Below are positions 55,726 to 63,620 of a DNA stretch of 64,000 nt, one piece after another. Both the position numbers and the translations under genes were made by a program. Numbering within the stretch: the first letter of the stretch is position 1; each line of letters opens with the position of its first letter. A model generated the notes under the pieces. That model did not search any database, was not told the origin of the DNA, and worked only from the letters and a program-made list of their open reading frames with translations. The DNA is from a virus: the IMG/VR virus record IMGVR_UViG_3300014720_002669; one strand, given 5' to 3'.

Positions 55726-56109
55726 ATGCGTAAATTATTATTTGGTTTGATATTAATATCTGGTTCTGTACTAGCACAAGATGTGTATGTGGTCAGCATC
55801 CAGCCCAGATACGTCACTGTACAACAGCAACAATGCCGTACTGTTGAGGTGTATCAAGACAACAGCAATGTGGGCACTGTGATTGGTGCTCTGGCTGGTG
55901 GGGTTATTGGACATCACATGGGGTCGGGCAATGTAGGCACCATACTGGGCACTGGCATAGGTGCCACAGTTGGCAACAAGGTCGGTCGAGACCAAGGCAC
56001 AGTGGTCAACAAACAAGTTTGTGACACAGTGCCAGTCACTGTACAACAAGGTGAAACTGTTACCTTCAACTATCGAGGACGAGTGTTCACACAAGTTTTT
56101 GGTAATTAA
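55726..56109 (+). CDS. secreted glycine-zipper 2TM protein (YcfJ-like)
   Basis: Signal peptide; GTVIGALAGGVIGHHMGSG. Confidence 0.8.
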   Translation: MRKLLFGLILISGSVLAQDVYVVSIQPRYVTVQQQQCRTVEVYQDNSNVGTVIGALAGGVIGHHMGSGNVGTILGTGIGATVGNKVGRDQGTVVNKQVCDTVPVTVQQGETVTFNYRGRVFTQVFGN

Positions 56110-56174
56110 AGTTATTGCTGTCTAAAGCTATTGACATTTTTGTTGAAATAAAATACAATAAATATTGTATCATC

Positions 56175-56440
56175 GTATGAAGTGATAAGAAAGGTGTTCA
56201 AGACGCGAGTTCGAATCTCGCCACCTCCGGAGAGCATTTATAAAAGTGTTTTGCGGTGGGGGTGATATTGGAAATCGATTGGGCAATCAGTATTTGACCA
56301 GACGATGCGGCAAGGTAGAAGCCGTTAGGGCAGGGGATTCCCGGCCGAAGAAGCAAAACAAGTATCTGCTAACGACGATACATATCTTTTGGCCGCCAAC
56401 GGTTGAAAGCGGGGCAGTTATGCCTTGTCACCCAAAATAG
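56175..56440 (+). ncRNA. ssrA: circularly permuted (two-piece) tmRNA; outer ends approximate
   Basis: T-arm and CACCTCC (56205-56228) precede GGGGGTG (56258-56264) with G3-U70; hairpin intervening segment; tag ANDDTYLLAANG* at 56368-56406. Confidence 0.85.
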
Positions 56441-56441
56441 C

Positions 56442-56468
56442 AATAGGCTCTTCGGAGCCTATTTTCTT
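56442..56468 (+). terminator. intrinsic terminator after the tmRNA
   Basis: AATAGGCTC TTCG GAGCCTATT TTCTT. Confidence 0.85.
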
Positions 56469-57085: not shown

Positions 57086-57114
57086 TTGACTTTTATATCA
57101 ACGGCATATATAAT
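57086..57114 (+). promoter_or_regulatory. sigma70 promoter for leader 1
   Basis: TTGACT-17-TATAAT. Confidence 0.85.
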
Positions 57115-57119
57115 ACATT

Positions 57120-57218
57120 ATGATTAAGCCGAACGCCCAACTGTCCATCGAGATACCCTCACACGATTATCGTGAGGCGCTGGCCTATACCTTACTCAGC
57201 GGGAGCAGTGGTACCTAA
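57120..57218 (+). CDS. putative attenuator leader peptide 1 (32 aa, MIKPNAQLSIEIPSHDYREALAYTLLSGSSGT)
   Basis: ATG at the predicted transcription start; 3' end contains TCAGCGGG complementary to the terminator 5' arm. Confidence 0.6.
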   Translation: MIKPNAQLSIEIPSHDYREALAYTLLSGSSGT

Positions 57219-57238
57219 TACCTAAGTACTATTTAAGC

Positions 57239-57271
57239 AAAAACCCGCTGATTTGGCGGGTTTTTCTTTTT
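57239..57271 (+). terminator. intrinsic terminator / attenuator 1
   Basis: AAAAACCCGC tgatttg GCGGGTTTTT CTTTTT. Confidence 0.85.
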
Positions 57272-57634: not shown

Positions 57635-57709
57635 GCACGATTCGTCTATCGGTTAGGACGCTGCCCTTTCAAGGCGGAAAGACGAGTTCGATTCTCGTAT
57701 CGTGTACCA
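57635..57709 (+). tRNA. tRNA-Glu(TTC)
   Basis: Cloverleaf; CCA. Confidence 0.9.
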
Positions 57710-57731
57710 AGTTTGTTCAACAGGAGTCAGT

Positions 57732-58079
57732 ATGCAATATTCAGTTTGGCGCATAGATCTGTATGAAGATGAGCGATTGGAAGTAATATCCCGTCATTGC
57801 TATCATCATTGGGTGAATGAAATACGCCCTCAAAGCAAATGCTTGCCTGACGATGATGAATTGGAAGAATTTGAACGTTGGCAGTACGAAACATGGGGTG
57901 CCTTGAAACAGCCCGGATTGAATCCCAATTCAGCCCACGGTTTGGTGGATGACCGCTGGATGGACTTTCCTTCAGAAACAGCGGCTGACAAATTTTTTGA
58001 TTTCTATCGCGACAAAGAGTGGGATCATTGGGCAGAAAAAAACAACAGACGTGACCGTATGTTTGTTTGTTCTCGGTAA
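57732..58079 (+). CDS. hypothetical protein within the tRNA array
   Basis: AGGAG RBS; MQYSVW start. Confidence 0.7.
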   Translation: MQYSVWRIDLYEDERLEVISRHCYHHWVNEIRPQSKCLPDDDELEEFERWQYETWGALKQPGLNPNSAHGLVDDRWMDFPSETAADKFFDFYRDKEWDHWAEKNNRRDRMFVCSR

Positions 58080-58161
58080 AGTTTTTGTAAGAGCATATCG
58101 CCTGAGCACTTCTCCCAGCAATGGGACACTAGGTTCTGCAACCTTGCTCTTACCCCTTTTT

Positions 58162-58247
58162 GGAGACGTGGCAGAGTGGTTGATTGCACGAGACTGTAAA
58201 TCTCGCCCCTAAAAAGCGCGGTGGTTCGAATCCATCCGTCTCCACCA
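58162..58247 (+). tRNA. tRNA-Tyr(GTA)
   Basis: Cloverleaf with variable arm; CCA. Confidence 0.9.
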
Positions 58248-58251
58248 TATG

Positions 58252-58404
58252 TTCTTATAGTCAAGCATCGATAAGGTATCGTGACAGGACGCTGTCACTA
58301 TTCGGGTCCAAGCGGCCGGCGACGGATCCTGACACAACTGCATCGGCTTTGACTGGGAAGCACCCAACGTCTAAATTTGCGTTCTCGGTGCTTGACTATA
58401 AGAA
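58252..58404 (+). ncRNA. stem-bracketed structured RNA between tRNA-Tyr and tRNA-Asp
   Basis: TTCTTATAGTCAAGCATCGA / TCGGTGCTTGACTATAAGAA; internal GTGACAG/CTGTCAC. Confidence 0.6.
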
Positions 58405-58406
58405 TT

Positions 58407-58481
58407 GGTCTCAAAGTGTTCATGGACGCACGTATGCCTGTCACGCATAAAGAAGGGGATCGTTACCCCTTGAGACCGCCA
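58407..58481 (+). tRNA. tRNA-Asp(GTC)
   Basis: Cloverleaf; atypical T-loop ATCGTTA. Confidence 0.85.
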
Positions 58482-58489
58482 GATTTTTT

Positions 58490-58566
58490 GCCCCGGTGAC
58501 GGAATTGGTATACGTGTTGGTTTTAGAAGCCAAATTTTAGGAGTTCGAGTCTCCTCTGGGGCACCA
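58490..58566 (+). tRNA. tRNA-Leu(TAG), short variable region
   Basis: TTGGT tt TAG aa GCCAA. Confidence 0.85.
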
Positions 58567-58570
58567 AGTT

Positions 58571-58773
58571 TTGTTGTGGTGTTAGCAAGAAAAAGACACT
58601 CTACTATGGATTCTTCGAAGGTCCCGGTAGTGTAAAGCACAGGCGGCGTGATTCCGTGCAAAAACTAAGTAATCAATCTGTGGTTGAGTATCCCAAGTAA
58701 CGTACCGAGTCCCGCATGCAAATCCGGTAAAGGGTGAATGGTGCCAATAACGATGGTGGCACTACTGCAACAA
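58571..58773 (+). ncRNA. stem-bracketed structured RNA between tRNA-Leu and tRNA-Arg
   Basis: TTGTTGTGGT/ACTGCAACAA closing stem; internal GTGCCA/TGGCAC and a UUCG hairpin. Confidence 0.5.
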
Positions 58774-58784
58774 ATTCAATTCAT

Positions 58785-58859
58785 GCCCCTGTCGTTCAAC
58801 GGATAGGATACCATGCTACGAACGTGGGGACGGAGGTTCGATTCCTTCCAGGGGTACCA
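58785..58859 (+). tRNA. tRNA-Arg(ACG)
   Basis: Cloverleaf; CCA. Confidence 0.9.
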
Positions 58860-58935
58860 TATAAAAACACATTGTATTTACAGAGTAGCGAGGTCTGTCT
58901 TAAGGGTTGCTCCCGTCAATGTGTTTTTATATGGT
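58856..58935 (+). repeat. 19-bp perfect inverted repeat linking tRNA-Arg and tRNA-His
   Basis: ACCATATAAAAACACATTG / CAATGTGTTTTTATATGGT. Confidence 0.85.
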
Positions 58936-59007
58936 GCAGTTAGTTTAGTGGTAAAACCGCGGGTTGTGATTCCGCTGTCACGAGTTCGATTCTCGTACTG
59001 TACCCCA
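58933..59007 (+). tRNA. tRNA-His(GTG)
   Basis: G-1:C73; CCA. Confidence 0.9.
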
Positions 59008-59010
59008 TGT

Positions 59011-59210
59011 ATATTGATTTCGGCGTGTGAAAAACTCATTGACTATGGGCCCAACTGCCAGGGACACTACTTGCTATCCAGAGCCGCTGACCGGGCGAGA
59101 GCCGCGTGGACTGCTAGTCACAGTCGAAGTCATGTTGCTGGAAGGACGACAGCGTAGCCTTTTTGCTGTGTTGTGTACCTTTAAACGCAGGGCAGTGCCG
59201 AATTCAATAT
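59011..59210 (+). ncRNA. stem-bracketed structured RNA between tRNA-His and tRNA-fMet
   Basis: ATATTGATTTCGGC / GCCGAATTCAATAT; GC-rich interior. Confidence 0.55.
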
Positions 59211-59223
59211 AAATAAAACACGA

Positions 59224-59298
59224 CGCAGAGTGGAGAAGTAGTATCTCACCAGGCTCATAACCTGGGGACCGGCGGTGCGAATCCGTCCTCTGCAACCA
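59224..59298 (+). tRNA. initiator-like tRNA-fMet(CAT)
   Basis: C1-A72 mismatch; loop CT CAT AA. Confidence 0.85.
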
Positions 59299-59344
59299 AA
59301 TTCGCCAGTGTGGTATAAATACCACACTAGGTTTTCAAAGCAGG

Positions 59345-59373
59345 TTGACCTGCAATGGTAAATACACTATAAT
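59345..59373 (+). promoter_or_regulatory. sigma70 promoter for leader 2, with a TAAATA inside the spacer
   Basis: TTGACC-17-TATAAT. Confidence 0.85.
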
Positions 59374-59380
59374 AGGAACT

Positions 59381-59491
59381 ATGATGAAACAACAATTCTG
59401 TTCAATGTCCAAGCCCACAACACTCCAGGCATCCGTCTGGCTGTTGGCCAATGGCTCAGCGAACAGCATTCCAGGAGAACCGGGGTTCTGA
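59381..59491 (+). CDS. putative attenuator leader peptide 2 (36 aa, MMKQQFCSMSKPTTLQASVWLLANGSANSIPGEPGF)
   Basis: Starts at about +1; its last codons CCGGGGTTCT are complementary to terminator arm AGAACCCTGG. Confidence 0.6.
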   Translation: MMKQQFCSMSKPTTLQASVWLLANGSANSIPGEPGF

Positions 59492-59515
59492 TTAGACTAT
59501 ATTCGTATATCTACC

Positions 59516-59553
59516 AAGAACCCTGGAACTAGACACTCCAGGGTTTTTCTTTT
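59516..59553 (+). terminator. intrinsic terminator / attenuator 2
   Basis: AAGAACCCTGGA actagacac TCCAGGGTTTTT CTTTT. Confidence 0.85.
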
Positions 59554-59654
59554 AGTGCAATGGCAACGCGAGCCGGTATCACTCAAAACTACAAATGTGG
59601 GCGGCCCGGAGGATGGGAAGCTAGTGGTGAAAACGCTAGTGGTAAAATTCCGGA

Positions 59655-59721
59655 GTATCAAAGCATATTCGATGTGCCCATAGCACATAGAAACATCCGA
59701 AACGTGAATATGCTTTGATAC
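59655..59721 (+). repeat. 16-bp perfect inverted repeat element
   Basis: GTATCAAAGCATATTC / GAATATGCTTTGATAC. Confidence 0.8.
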
Positions 59722-59752
59722 ACACACTGGCAACAGTGTGTCTATAATAGAT

Positions 59753-59826
59753 TCCGGTGTAGTATAATGGCAGTGCGGCGGTCTCCAAAACCGCTAGTGG
59801 GAGTTCGATTCTCTCCATCGGAGCCA
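59753..59826 (+). tRNA. tRNA-Trp(CCA)
   Basis: Cloverleaf; CCA. Confidence 0.9.
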
Positions 59827-59834
59827 TAAAATTT

Positions 59835-59909
59835 GGGCTGTTAGTGATAATGGGAGCACGAGGCCTTTGCACGGCTTAGGTGGGAGTTCGATTCTCCCAC
59901 GGTCCACCA
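59835..59909 (+). tRNA. tRNA-Ala(TGC)
   Basis: G3-U70; CCA. Confidence 0.9.
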
Positions 59910-59931
59910 AACATGATATAAGTATTCACAA

Positions 59932-60021
59932 GGAACGTGGGCCGGATGGTAAGGCACGGGATTGCTAATCCCGCGGTGGTGACGAGCCGCTGATAGGGTT
60001 CGACTCCCTAACGTTCCGCCA
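59932..60021 (+). tRNA. tRNA-Ser(GCT)
   Basis: Long variable arm; G73. Confidence 0.9.
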
Positions 60022-60029
60022 AAAAATAT

Positions 60030-60105
60030 TCCCTAGTAGCACAGCGGTAGTTGCGCTTCACTGTTAATGAAGATGTCGTTCGTTCGATCCGAACCTAGGG
60101 AGCCA
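60030..60105 (+). tRNA. tRNA-Asn(GTT)
   Basis: Cloverleaf; CCA. Confidence 0.9.
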
Positions 60106-60122
60106 AATACAAAGGAAACAAG

Positions 60123-60290
60123 ATGTCTAACACATTTAGAACTACAAACGATCCAATGAAACATCACAGTGGCAAGCCCAGGCTGGGTCCACTGAATGTG
60201 GCACAACTGACCAAGATGTTGGAAAGTGCAAGACCAAAAAATCGCTCAAAGATTCAACGTGCAATAGATCAAAAACTCAAAAAGTCTTGA
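60123..60290 (+). CDS. small basic protein (55 aa, MSNTFRTTNDPMKHHSGKPRLGPLN...)
   Basis: AAGGA RBS; read from the sequence. Confidence 0.7.
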   Translation: MSNTFRTTNDPMKHHSGKPRLGPLNVAQLTKMLESARPKNRSKIQRAIDQKLKKS

Positions 60291-60298
60291 ACACACAC

Positions 60299-60372
60299 GC
60301 CCTACTAGTATAATGGCATTACACTGGTTTTGTAATCCTGTGATGGCAGTTCGATTCTGTCGTGGGGCACCA
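60299..60372 (+). tRNA. tRNA-Thr(TGT), weak anticodon stem
   Basis: Cloverleaf; two U-U mismatches. Confidence 0.75.
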
Positions 60373-60424
60373 ATTTTTTACCAAGGAGATCTGTCATGAA
60401 TAGTGACAAGAGTCACAAACCTAT

Positions 60425-60501
60425 GGGCCGATAGTTTAACGGCTAAAACATCCGGCTTTTACCCGGTAAGAGTCAGGGTTCGAATCCCTGTCGGCCCACC
60501 A
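60425..60501 (+). tRNA. tRNA-Lys(TTT)
   Basis: CCGG ct TTT ac CCGG; CCA. Confidence 0.9.
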
Positions 60502-60568
60502 TATGAAAACACACTAATTGTCCCACAGAGGCCATTTCTAATATCTGAATAGTGTGTTTCCGTATGGT
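60498..60568 (+). repeat. imperfect inverted repeat linking tRNA-Lys and tRNA-Met
   Basis: ACCATATGAAAACACACTA / TAGTGTGTTTCCGTATGGT. Confidence 0.8.
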
Positions 60569-60640
60569 AGTGTAGCATAATGGTAGTGCAGCACCTTCAT
60601 ACGGTGTCCAGTGAGAGTTCGACTCCCTCCATTACCACCA
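60566..60640 (+). tRNA. tRNA-Met(CAT)
   Basis: GCACC tt CAT ac GGTGT. Confidence 0.85.
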
Positions 60641-60645
60641 AATTA

Positions 60646-60720
60646 AGCCGCGTAACTCAGAGGCAGAGTAATCGCTTGATAAGCGATAAGTCGACATTTC
60701 GAAATTGTCCGTGGCTACCA
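60646..60720 (+). tRNA. tRNA-Ile(GAT)
   Basis: Cloverleaf; CCA. Confidence 0.85.
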
Positions 60721-60725
60721 GATAT

Positions 60726-60799
60726 TGGGGTATGGTGTAGTGATAGCACAACAGGCTTTGAACTTGTTGGTCTTGGTTTGATTCCAAGTACCCCTGCCA
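60726..60799 (+). tRNA. tRNA-Gln(TTG)
   Basis: Cloverleaf; mismatched 1-72 pair. Confidence 0.85.
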
Positions 60800-60845
60800 A
60801 ACCACGTAGACAAACAGTGATGTTTGTTGTATAATTACTATATAC

Positions 60846-60919
60846 GCGGCGTTCGTAAAATGGTATTACCCGATCCTTCCAAGTTCGCGTCGCGAGTTCG
60901 ATTCTCGCACGCCGCTCCA
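60846..60919 (+). tRNA. tRNA-Gly(TCC)
   Basis: U73; CCA. Confidence 0.9.
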
Positions 60920-60941
60920 TTTAACAACTGAAAGATCCAAC

Positions 60942-61163
60942 ATGGGAATAGAGAGTGCCGCAACGTTTTTGGTTTGCACAATTTTGCTGGGCTCGGGCGT
61001 CACAGTGATAGTGGGTGTGATCTTGTTGATCAACAACCTGTTGCATCGCTACTGGAAAGACCTGCACTGGAATTTGCCCGAGGCCTTGCACGGAATGCCA
61101 TATCATCGATACCAACAACACAATCTTGATCGCAGTCAAGAACCCCCTTTAGACCGGAAGTAA
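60942..61163 (+). CDS. small membrane protein
   Basis: N-terminal hydrophobic helix. Confidence 0.6.
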   Translation: MGIESAATFLVCTILLGSGVTVIVGVILLINNLLHRYWKDLHWNLPEALHGMPYHRYQQHNLDRSQEPPLDRK

Positions 61164-61218
61164 TACTGCTCTTCTGACGAGCCAAGTTCTTCTTGCACTT
61201 CCGATCTAACACTTTTAT

Positions 61219-61296
61219 CCGTGTGTAGCGCAGCCTGGTTAGCGCATCTGGTTTGGGACCAGAGGGTCGGGAGTTCGAATCTCTCTACACGGACCA
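61219..61296 (+). tRNA. tRNA-Pro(TGG)
   Basis: Cloverleaf; CCA. Confidence 0.9.
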
Positions 61297-61302
61297 TGAC
61301 AT

Positions 61303-61380
61303 GCAACGGTGGCGGAGTGGCCCAACGCATGGGATTGCAAATCCCAAAAACCGTGAGTTCGAATCTCACCCGTTGTTCCA
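61303..61380 (+). tRNA. tRNA-Cys(GCA)
   Basis: U73; CCA. Confidence 0.9.
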
Positions 61381-61388
61381 AAAACCTA

Positions 61389-61480
61389 GGAAGATGATGC
61401 AGGTGGGATGGTCCGCCGACTGGCCTTGAAAACCAGGTTCTCTTAACAGGGATGGGGTTCGACTCCTCCGTCTTCCGCCA
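61389..61480 (+). tRNA. tRNA-Ser(TGA) with an 8/4 fold
   Basis: 8-bp acceptor GGAAGATG/CGTCTTCC, 4-bp T-stem, 5-bp D-stem. Confidence 0.8.
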
Positions 61481-61504
61481 AATAAGTAAAAAGAGGAGCC
61501 TGTG

Positions 61505-61669
61505 ATGAAGCCAATCATATTTGAAAACAAAATTACACGCGAACGATTTATCTGTGACGACATCAGATTTCGACGAGTATTTGATGGCGTTGAATACATC
61601 TCTGTACATCGTGAAAACGAAACACGACAATTGCTGATGCGTCTAGACGCACTAACTCGTATCTCTTAA
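61505..61669 (+). CDS. small hypothetical protein (54 aa, MKPIIFENKITRERF...)
   Basis: GAGGAG RBS; read from the sequence. Confidence 0.7.
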   Translation: MKPIIFENKITRERFICDDIRFRRVFDGVEYISVHRENETRQLLMRLDALTRIS

Positions 61670-61743
61670 GCCTCGTTAATTTAATGGTAGAATGCCCTCC
61701 TTACAAGTGGGACACGGCAGTTCAATTCTGTCACGAGGTACCA
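61670..61743 (+). tRNA. tRNA-Val(TAC)
   Basis: Cloverleaf; CCA. Confidence 0.85.
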
Positions 61744-61819
61744 GCCACCATAGCAAAGATGGTCTATGCAGCGGACTGAAAATCCGTGGATCCTGGCTCG
61801 GTACCAGGTGGTGGCACCA
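61744..61819 (+). tRNA. tRNA-Phe(GAA), abutting tRNA-Val with no spacer
   Basis: GCGGA ct GAA aa TCCGT; atypical T-loop. Confidence 0.85.
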
Positions 61820-61866
61820 ATGAACCGTCCAACACAAATTCCCACCGGACCGGTGTAAATTCAATT

Positions 61867-61966
61867 ACAAATTCTGCTGGTGTGTGTTGGTACAGTGTAT
61901 CTAATTGAAACCCACGATCGGTACACCAGTAGGCTGGAGATACATTGGATTCTTTTGAGAATTTGT
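61867..61966 (+). ncRNA. candidate pseudoknotted RNA
   Basis: Two crossing 10-bp stems within a 9-bp closing stem. Confidence 0.5.
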
Positions 61967-62021
61967 TGTACAAAATGTTTATGTTTGACTGTGGTTTGAA
62001 TTGATGCACAGTGTATTTAAT

Positions 62022-62101
62022 GCCCCCATGGACAAATTGGCAAAGTCACTATCCTCAAAAGGGAGTATATGTTCTCAGTTCGAATCTGAGTGGGGGTACC
62101 A
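62022..62101 (+). tRNA. tRNA-Leu(CAA), short variable region
   Basis: Loop CT CAA AA; CCA. Confidence 0.8.
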
Positions 62102-62108
62102 TTCAAAT

Positions 62109-62185
62109 GCCCCGGTAGCCGAATTGGTATAGGCACTGTGTTGAGGTCGCAGGTTTTGTGAGTTCGAGTCTCACCCAGGGCACCA
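62109..62185 (+). tRNA. tRNA-Leu(GAG), short variable region
   Basis: CTGTG tt GAG gt CGCAG. Confidence 0.85.
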
Positions 62186-62191
62186 CGTCAA

Positions 62192-62267
62192 CTCTGTGTT
62201 GCGTAATCAGGTAGCGCACTGGCATGGGGTGCCAGCGGTCGAGGTTCAAATCCTCGTACAGAGACCA
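62192..62267 (+). tRNA. tRNA-Pro(GGG)
   Basis: CTGGC at GGG gt GCCAG. Confidence 0.85.
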
Positions 62268-62288
62268 CGTATAACTAAGAAAGATAAT

Positions 62289-62756
62289 ATGAAAAAACTA
62301 GACATTGATCAAGTGGCAGAATTTATTCGGGCTCAAACACCTGAAACTCGCATCTATCTAGGCTGTGATTCAGAACGTTTGCGCCTTGATGGACACTGGT
62401 ACGCTGACTATGTGTTGGCCATTGTGGTACACATCAACGGCAACAACGGGTGCAAGATCTTTGGTGAAGTACAGCGTGAGCCTGTGTGGGATCAAAAGCA
62501 ATCAAAGCCAGCCATGCGGCTAATGACCGAAGTGTACAAGGTATCAGAATTGTACTTGCGACTGGCCGAAGTGCTGGAAGGGCGTGATGTTGAAGTTCAC
62601 CTTGACATCAGTCCAGACCAAATGCACGGATCAAGTTGTGTGATCTCACAGGCCATAGGCTACATCAAAGGCACATGCAACGTGATTCCTTTTGTGAAGC
62701 CACATGCGTTTGCTGCCAGTTATGCTGCCGACCGATTCAAAGGACTGGCAGCATAG
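62289..62756 (+). CDS. RNase H-like YkuK-family protein
   Basis: IYLGCDS, RLMTEV, EVHLDI, KPHAFAASYAAD. Confidence 0.85.
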   Translation: MKKLDIDQVAEFIRAQTPETRIYLGCDSERLRLDGHWYADYVLAIVVHINGNNGCKIFGEVQREPVWDQKQSKPAMRLMTEVYKVSELYLRLAEVLEGRDVEVHLDISPDQMHGSSCVISQAIGYIKGTCNVIPFVKPHAFAASYAADRFKGLAA

Positions 62757-62766
62757 AAAAAATAAA

Positions 62767-62840
62767 GCAGGATTAGTTTAGGGGTAAAACAGAACGTTGC
62801 CAACGTCCAGTCACCAGTTCGATTCTGGTATCCTGCTCCA
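62767..62840 (+). tRNA. tRNA-Gly(GCC)
   Basis: Cloverleaf; U73. Confidence 0.85.
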
Positions 62841-62843
62841 ATT

Positions 62844-62917
62844 GCTCTTGTAGTTAAGTGGCATAACAAATCCATGGTAAGGATTAGTCGACAGTTCGAT
62901 TCTGTACTAGAGCACCA
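62844..62917 (+). tRNA. tRNA-Thr(GGT)
   Basis: AATCC at GGT aa GGATT. Confidence 0.85.
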
Positions 62918-62918
62918 G

Positions 62919-63620
62919 TTATTTCACAGTGGCCAATCTCAAGGCACTGAGCAAGCGGATGTACATCCAGCCAATATCAAACTCCCACCAGCGTCTGCTG
63001 AGTCGAGCACTGGCAGGATCAAGATGGTGATTGTTGTGTAGTTCTTCGCCACCGATCACAATGCCCCAAGGCACGATGTTACGGCTACGATCCTTTGTTT
63101 CTCCATTGCGGTATCCCCACCAGTGTCCAACACCGTTGACAACACCAGCGGCCCAGAATGGAATCCATAGCATTTGTATGCCCCAGATTATGGCGCCAAT
63201 CCAACCAAAGACGATGATGTTGAACACAAGGAGAATGCCAATGCCAAGTCTGGAGTGACTACTATATAGGTTGTGCTCAATCCAATCAGCAGGAGTGCCA
63301 ACACCATATGAATCAACCATGACTTTATCTTTTGATGCCACATGATATAACACCGCTCCTTTGAAAAAAACTTGTTTGATTCCATACACATGTGGGCTGT
63401 GCGGATCGCCTGACTCGTCGCTGAATCTGTGATGTTTGCGATGTACCGCTACCCATTGTTTCGTGACCATGCCAGTTGTGAGCCACAACCAAAATCTAAA
63501 AAAATGTGCCACCGCAGGATGAAACTGTACGCTTCTGTGTGCTTGGCTTCTGTGCAGGAAAAGTGTGACAGTCGCAATGGTGATGTGTGTTGCAATCAAT
63601 ATATACAATAGTTCAGTCAT
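62919..63620 (-). CDS. delta-9-type fatty acid desaturase
   Basis: His boxes HRSQAH, HRKHH, HNNHH; DPHSP. Confidence 0.92.
   Translation of the reverse strand: MTELLYILIATHITIATVTLFLHRSQAHRSVQFHPAVAHFFRFWLWLTTGMVTKQWVAVHRKHHRFSDESGDPHSPHVYGIKQVFFKGAVLYHVASKDKVMVDSYGVGTPADWIEHNLYSSHSRLGIGILLVFNIIVFGWIGAIIWGIQMLWIPFWAAGVVNGVGHWWGYRNGETKDRSRNIVPWGIVIGGEELHNNHHLDPASARLSRRWWEFDIGWMYIRLLSALRLATVK

Follow-up and report, generated by a model that had tools for sequence, protein, structure and literature searches.

The leader 2 cassette and its surroundings

The window analysed here, a stretch of 64,000 nucleotides from an IMG/VR virus record (IMGVR_UViG_3300014720_002669), looks like part of the genome of an uncultured jumbo phage. 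The encoded DNA polymerase shares 43%–51% identity with its counterparts in Phosso, Atu_ph07, CBB and relatives, and related IMG/VR contigs reach 364 kb. The window carries 30 tRNA genes recognized by ARAGORN, in addition to Ser(TGA), as well as a permuted, two-piece tmRNA (56108–56465; 100 bits on the betaproteobacterial model), the type of which provides a hint at the host group. Two cassettes, leader 1 and leader 2, each consisting of a promoter, a short upstream open reading frame (uORF) and a terminator, are embedded in the tRNA array, and each precedes a block of tRNA genes. The features considered below are as follows:

57086–57271, + strand: leader 1, the sister cassette; its uORF contains D, E, H, L, R and Y
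57635–59298, + strand: block 1 behind leader 1, with tRNA genes for Glu, Tyr, Asp, Leu, Arg(ACG), His and Met
59314–59321, + strand: T4-late-type promoter motif TATAAATA; similar motifs lie upstream of the leaders of cultured phages
59345–59373, + strand: sigma70-type promoter TTGACC-17-TATAAT, 11/12 matches to the consensus; hexamers conserved in the alignment of homologues
59358–59364, + strand: late-type TAAATA motif within the sigma70 spacer; same placement in other cassettes
59381–59491, + strand: uORF of leader 2, 36 sense codons, from ATG at 59381 to TGA at 59489–59491
59384–59470, + strand: putative sensing zone, codons 2–30 of leader 2
59469–59475, + strand: conserved TTCCAGG, once proposed as a ‘second register’; no evidence of an antiterminator role
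59480–59489, + strand: antiterminator 5′ arm, made of the last three codons and the first base of the stop codon; pairs with 59517–59526
59493–59513, + strand: small UUCG-capped hairpin inside the antiterminator helix, from folding
59516–59553, + strand: intrinsic terminator, core stem 59521–59527/59537–59543, 9-nt loop, U-tract 59544–59553
59554–59665, + strand: conserved structured RNA, the first element past the terminator; not in Rfam
59753–62917, + strand: block putatively controlled by leader 2, 20 tRNA genes, the first for Trp and the last Thr(GGT), with Ser(TGA) at 61389–61476

The promoter and the 36-codon ORF behind it, the 10-bp complementarity between the end of this ORF and the terminator arm (one of the pairs is G-U) and the Trp-Ala-Ser-Asn-Thr-Lys-Met-Ile-Gln tRNA run, which starts at 59753, had been picked out in an earlier, sequence-only reading of this DNA and were all found in place. 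Recounting also reproduced its statements that leader 2 contains C, F, V and W, which leader 1 lacks, and that, between them, the two leaders cover 20 amino acids with 40 different sense codons. The claim that the two cassettes share an architecture holds, whereas the accompanying claim that they share no sequence has to be amended for 13 nt at the 3′ end of the terminator, the only local similarity that we found between them.

The ATG of leader 2 lies only 7 nt downstream of the −10 box, so that the message is probably leaderless; an alternative ATG at 59384 is preceded by AGGA 6 nt upstream. The late-like motif inside the sigma70 spacer, found in 55 of 92 related cassettes (see below), suggests a dual promoter, and TATAAATA at 59314–59321 might be inferred to form a second input to leader 2. 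Throughout the window, TAAATA/TAAGTA late-type motifs are strand-biased, with 11 on the plus strand and 2 on the minus strand; the sites include 59358–59364, 59314–59321, 59209, 59918 and 61482.

Because no terminator-like hairpin was found within 59560–63100, the block could be a single transcript. Promoter-like sites nevertheless occur within it at 59719, 60287 and 60807, each with 11/12 matches, as do late-like motifs at 59918 and 61482; the internal promoter-like sites could bypass the switch or provide a second input for part of the block. The last of these sites (60807–60835) is located 10 nt upstream of tRNA-Gly(TCC). An RNase H-like gene (PF04308, phrog_11311), at 62289–62756 in the window, lies among the tRNA genes in most arrays. 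A tRNA-Met(CAT) gene (59224–59298 in the window) is found 120–200 nt upstream of leader 2 in many arrays, outside its block.

Leader 2 folds with z-scores of −2.6 to −2.9 relative to dinucleotide shuffles. A search of 59345–59750 against Rfam, with E up to 1, returned nothing for leader 2 or for the RNA behind its terminator, and Pfam and PHROG searches with both leader peptides yielded no match. The RNA at 59554–59665 was found behind 31 of 92 cassettes and consists of an outer stem around a hairpin with an invariant AACG loop, followed by invariant GGGCGG and GGAT and then by a covarying stem, with compensatory changes in 6 of the 13 predicted pairs; as judged by eye, it likely contains a pseudoknot. 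It might conceivably act as a processing signal, as a ribozyme or in processive antitermination, and a resemblance to the put RNA of HK022 was considered as well.

Recurrence of the cassette and the predicted RNA switch

Related loci were collected via two neighbouring genes and the terminator pattern, and cassettes were detected as a promoter, a short ORF and a terminator, without regard to tRNAs. This yielded 93 distinct cassettes, one of which proved to be the end of a long gene, leaving 92. A tRNA gene lies within 2 kb of 87 of these, and the remaining 5 are truncated. The ORFs span 20–53 codons, the ATG follows the −10 box by 5–11 nt in 88 of 92 cassettes, 36 open with Met-Met, and the terminator core begins 19–34 nt past the stop codon. 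The recurrence of the layout, which the sequence-only reading had singled out as its strong evidence, is thus extensive in related phage contigs.

Given that the detector demands an open frame, a count made from the terminator side, independently of ORF detection, provides a fairer test of frame. Among 86 distinct hits of the terminator pattern, 60 coincide with detected cassettes and 17 end a long gene without a tRNA behind; the other 9 have tRNAs behind, and the short ORF is intact in 8 of them and cut off in one. Stops and frameshifts scattered freely through homologous leaders, which had been named in advance as a pattern that would refute the attenuator, were not encountered. The same terminator sequence closes an ordinary long gene with no tRNA behind in L082, L084, L085, L095 and other contigs. 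In GTDB genomes, the terminator pattern has four matches, all on contigs of metagenome-assembled genomes (MAGs), three of which carry the cassette and are probably binned phage DNA. The MAG contigs labelled Haliscomenobacter and Flavobacteriales (L237, L238, L239), in which near-identical phage cassettes are present, are probably mis-binned.

In each of the 92 leaders, a partner for the 5′ arm of the terminator lies no more than 43 nt from the stop codon, and the best duplex with this arm averages −15.3 kcal/mol. For 62 terminators at ordinary gene ends in these loci, the best partners occur at scattered positions and average −8.0 kcal/mol. When 16 close homologues were aligned with MAFFT, 94.8% of the antiterminator cells were found to pair, and eight cells are altered on both sides, a result matched in 1 of 500 shuffles; slid controls in the same alignment contained no both-side changes. 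Moreover, the cassette's own arm surpasses the mean foreign arm in 69 of 72 cassettes with the same core. TTCCAGG had been offered as a second antiterminator register, and it is indeed complementary to 59522–59528, but this helix displays no both-side change in the 16 homologues and has a pairing probability of about zero in the footprint model described next; the motif is kept even where the terminator arm changes against it.

The switch was modelled as RNA folding with a ribosome footprint, at equilibrium. For the window, the predicted probability of the terminator is at most 0.01 without a ribosome or with the A site anywhere up to codon 31, rises to 0.45 at codon 32 and reaches 1.0 from codon 33 to the stop, whereas the antiterminator forms with a probability of 1.0 in the absence of a ribosome. 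Without a ribosome, the terminator probability is below 0.5 in 66 of 92 leaders, and 62 of 92 leaders switch at equilibrium, as opposed to 3 of 62 gene-end controls. The other 30 cassettes do not switch in the model. In 31 cassettes, the arm lies more than 20 nt upstream of the stop codon, and 14 of these fail to switch.

The latter placement, together with the two overlapping promoter types and the Met-Met start, would be compatible with an RNA switch or timing device that is not set by codon decoding and responds, instead, to a phage protein, to polymerase speed or to a change from the sigma70 to the late promoter affecting initiation at the uORF. Such a device would, however, explain neither the match between amino acids and tRNAs nor the preservation of frame in the zone, both described below, and we regard it as quite improbable.

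A proposed checklist of amino acids in the uORF

A signal absent from the earlier reading is that the amino acids of each leader match the tRNAs of the block behind it. Codons 2–30 of leader 2 include each of the 14 amino acids other than Met for which the downstream block has a tRNA, but not D, E, H, R or Y, the tRNAs for which are located between leaders 1 and 2; leader 1, in turn, contains these five. The resulting agreement of 19/19 was attained by none of 11,888 windows of equal length from the phage's own genes. In this score, the distal Arg(TCG), separated from the block by an opposite-strand gene, is counted as lying outside, and its inclusion would give 18/19; the block limits and the zone cut-off were our choice.

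Across 33 distinct complete arrays, 587 of 627 amino-acid/tRNA cells agree, with per-residue agreement of 33/33 for His, 32/33 for Cys, 31/33 each for Arg and Glu and 28/33 for Tyr. Among the exceptions, Val is absent from 8 of the 33 zones, and Tyr is present without its own tRNA in 5. Where the block lacks the respective tRNAs, D and E are absent from the zone in 26 of 27 and 27 of 27 cases. Swapping leaders between arrays lowers the mean match from 17.8 to 16.2, with a maximum of 16.9 in 20,000 permutations, although kinship is ignored in this test. Leader-1-type cassettes contain 57 of 64 amino acids of their own blocks, and, of the seven that are missing, five are Asp residues located immediately beyond the zone cut-off.

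Correlated change was traced along a tree that combined tRNA sequences with the RNase H-like gene. Four separate lineages have no tRNA-Cys gene in the block, and none of them has the Cys codon. Summed over seven amino acids, independent pairs differ in the same way in 11.7 cases and in the opposite way in none, with no difference in 5.3; the protein-gene tree alone gives 8.6, 0.1 and 3.4, respectively. No single amino acid is significant, each being represented by at most four pairs; His and Arg move together, the sums cannot be treated as wholly independent, and the tree is weakened by phage mosaicism.

The match between leader and block is by amino acid, not by exact anticodon. Because codons exactly cognate to the anticodons are not enriched in the zones (328/689 vs. 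353 expected), sensing at the level of isoacceptors is not demonstrated. Codon diversity carries no weight as evidence for leader 2: it had been called only suggestive in the sequence-only reading, which had also proposed comparing it with the phage codon usage, and the 24 distinct codons among 29 are unremarkable, as many being reached in 12% of windows taken from genes of the phage itself. Some wobble-read codons are favoured in the zones of the 33 main-block leaders relative to phage usage (TAT, 95% vs. 55%; CAT, 77% vs. 53%; ATT, 76% vs. 43%; CAG, 56% vs. 33%), without correction for kinship. The codon GGA is absent from 28 of 30 zones whose block carries tRNA-Gly(TCC).

The uORF is under coding constraint, with pN/pS of 0.32 in 42 nearest-neighbour pairs. 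Indels in the sensing zone comprise 13 multiples of three and six compensating pairs, as opposed to the spacer, where 2 of 23 are in frame and 21 of 23 are out of frame. This constraint is indirect evidence of translation, in the absence of ribosome data. It would also be expected if the uORF were simply a gene for a small protein, driven by its own promoter and closed by a terminator of the ordinary kind, with other promoters serving the tRNAs and the complementarity being incidental; the identical terminator sequence at the ends of ordinary long genes in other phages and the internal promoter-like sites in the block would fit such a gene as well. Nevertheless, the competing helix is missing at ordinary gene ends and covaries in the cassettes, and the peptides diverge widely, tolerate compensated frameshifts and track the tRNAs in their content. 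We consider it highly implausible that the uORF is merely a protein gene of this kind. Within the zone, 10% of the positions of single-copy amino acids change, against 24% where the amino acid is redundant (odds ratio within residues, 2.5), and this extra conservation is better fitted by a checklist than by a folded peptide. Collectively, the recurrence, the covarying antiterminators, the coding constraint and the in silico switch support the proposal, made in the sequence-only reading, of a translation-coupled attenuator of tRNA genes, the regulation itself being unmeasured. Although there are no expression or functional data, leader 2 is a real feature and very probably a ribosome-dependent attenuator of its tRNA block.

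Proposed mechanism and relation to known systems

The best explanation, which rests by computation on the layout, the exclusive helices, the covariation, the coding constraint and the amino-acid/tRNA match, is that leader 2 is a ribosome-dependent transcription attenuator with tRNA genes as its output; we consider this likely, with the trigger, translation, timing and regulation in the cell all being inferred. Transcription would begin at or near the ATG of the uORF, with a ribosome trailing the polymerase. A ribosome that arrives at codons 33–37 in time would cover the antiterminator arm, allowing the terminator to form and keeping the block off, transcription with a pacing ribosome ending at 59544–59553. 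Conversely, upon a stall at codons 2–31, or if no ribosome loads, the arm would pair with the 5′ arm of the terminator, resulting in read-through into the 20 tRNA genes. The uORF would then serve as a checklist, in which every amino acid served by its own block is represented by one codon or more, such that a shortage of any working tRNA, whether caused by a tRNA-cleaving host defence, by depletion at a late stage of infection or by starvation for amino acids, would turn on the block that carries the replacement; the added tRNA would restore the ribosome speed and close the feedback loop. As the amino acids of the uORF match the tRNAs that follow, the phage probably makes the tRNAs of the block when its ribosomes slow down. 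A stall cannot separate tRNA loss from starvation for amino acids.

The classical leaders trpL, hisL, pheL, thrL, ilvL and pheM combine a short uORF with mutually exclusive antiterminator and terminator structures, and stalling leads to read-through. In leaders of the trpL/hisL type, the regulatory codons match the downstream function and form runs for one to three amino acids, whereas leader 2 has no tandem codon runs and no codon used more than three times, and the 14 amino acids are each present between one and seven times. Furthermore, an untranslated classical leader terminates due to the 1:2 hairpin, whereas untranslated leader 2 is predicted to read through, the opposite default. The T-box riboswitch, in which a single uncharged tRNA is bound by the RNA itself, with no ribosome involved, to control transcription termination, resembles leader 2 in linking the state of tRNA to termination. 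The Rfam search of 59345–59750, with E up to 1, returned no T-box match, and the rnk leader (RF01772) aligned with leader 1 only, at 29.6 bits and E of 0.12, below the cut-off of 55 bits and with no rnk downstream.

The closest parallel in the use of a broad uORF is whiB7 (wblC) of mycobacteria, the uORF of which contains nearly all amino acids; its efficient translation leads to a Rho-independent terminator and stalling to an antiterminator, and the amino-acid content of the uORF has been shown to set the response (PMC10274678). Leader 2 is similar in that its uORF is broad (15 amino acids in codons 1–30) and stalling is predicted to cause read-through, and leaders 1 and 2 jointly contain all 20 amino acids, the set being split over the two leaders. 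The outputs differ, namely, a transcription factor in a bacterium versus tRNA genes in a phage, and, unlike in whiB7, the leader content follows the leader's own tRNA block; no sequence homology is implied. The whiB7 response to antibiotics (PMC10274678) illustrates the possibility that leader 2 is a general attenuator of translation speed, turned on by any slowing, be it antibiotics, ribosome shortage or host shut-off, with the tRNA match as a by-product. The switch would be identical to that proposed above, its modelled default without a ribosome is read-through, and exact codon–anticodon matching is absent. This alternative does not account for the lack of D and E in zones ahead of blocks without the respective tRNAs (26/27 and 27/27), for the four lineages without the Cys codon or for the extra conservation of single-copy amino acids, which leaves it unlikely, in our estimate.

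Other systems share individual traits with the proposed checklist attenuator. The trn operon of Anabaena PCC 7120 is a long tRNA array that is normally silent and is induced 100- to 1000-fold under translational stress (PMC8421152), and its repressor is TrcR (PMC10272220). Control is thus by a protein repressor, and attenuation, a leader and a terminator go unmentioned in PMC8421152, in contrast to the attenuator of leader 2. The toiL uORF of Escherichia coli senses many translation stresses (PMC12121999) and is alike in that a single uORF responds to many of them but, unlike leader 2, controls a toxin gene by way of a ribosome-binding site and Rho-dependent termination. A T5-like tRNA-Tyr offsets the retron Eco7, phage tRNAs replacing cleaved host tRNAs, and the expression level matters (PMC11555353); a strong promoter is invoked in that case and, unlike for leader 2, a sensing element is not described (PMC11555353).

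In the literature that we searched, which left subscription journals mostly uncovered, no description of attenuation of phage tRNA genes was found; leader-peptide attenuation is reported there for enzymes, synthetases and regulators, with tRNA genes not among the targets. The reasons for the large tRNA arrays of phages, including codon bias, replacement of degraded tRNAs and counter-defence, have long been debated. If the proposed mechanism is correct, a switch with one codon per amino acid implies that the arrays are made on demand, with the switch being a direct read-out of the shortage to which the phage responds. A wider scenario, which we entertain as a serious possibility while stopping somewhat short of endorsing it, is that phages split their tRNA arrays into modules, each with a co-evolving checklist uORF, by which they detect the loss of host tRNAs, for example, to anticodon nucleases, and supply only the replacement module. 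Should this be the case, the module and checklist design would amount to an inducible, self-limiting counter-defence in several jumbo and T4-like lineages. In practical terms, unannotated uORFs mark the start and the content of tRNA transcription units in phage genomes, and the cassette, at about 210 nt, is suited to reporter testing.

Cultured phages were searched with a promoter-free scan, the sigma70-based detector having given nothing in cultured T4-like phages. The layout heads tRNA blocks in four of them, so that testing during infection is possible: Ralstonia phage RsoM2USA (MG752970, near 87,250, minus strand; helix −16.1; match 17/19, 0.1% of background), Agrobacterium phage Atu_ph07 (MF403008, near 339,120, minus strand; −18.8; 14/19, 4.7%), Xanthomonas phage BUDD (ON758385, near 152,540, minus strand; −14.9; 17/19, 2.4%) and Sinorhizobium phage Phosso (PV764938, 419,754–419,918, plus strand; −20.1; GTG start; a zone lacking only C and D). 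Their leader peptides, judged by eye, are unlike that of leader 2, and TAAATA-type motifs lie upstream. No cassette was found in the scanned stretches of DLP6, RP13, CBB and Vibrio 2.275.O, or upstream of the first tRNA block of RsoM2USA. In KVP40 (L236:4322–4490) and BUCT-ZZ01 (L234:1820–2025), unannotated ORFs of 37 and 46 codons, with every amino acid except Gly, stand at the head of the array and are followed by a terminator. The competing helix is weak in both (−7.9 and −9.7) and located at the stop codon; these leaders are weaker candidates, on which we remain undecided.

Further module types appear as short or biased leaders before smaller tRNA sets (L126:11170–11420, L176, L138, L139, L167, L125 and L213), including Ser/Leu/Arg, Gly/Glu/Ala/Asp/Leu/Asn/Thr and Trp/Pro/Cys/Thr/Ser/Gly. 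In two of these contigs, L126 and L176, a Ser/Leu-rich leader lies ahead of tRNA genes for Ser, Arg and Leu.
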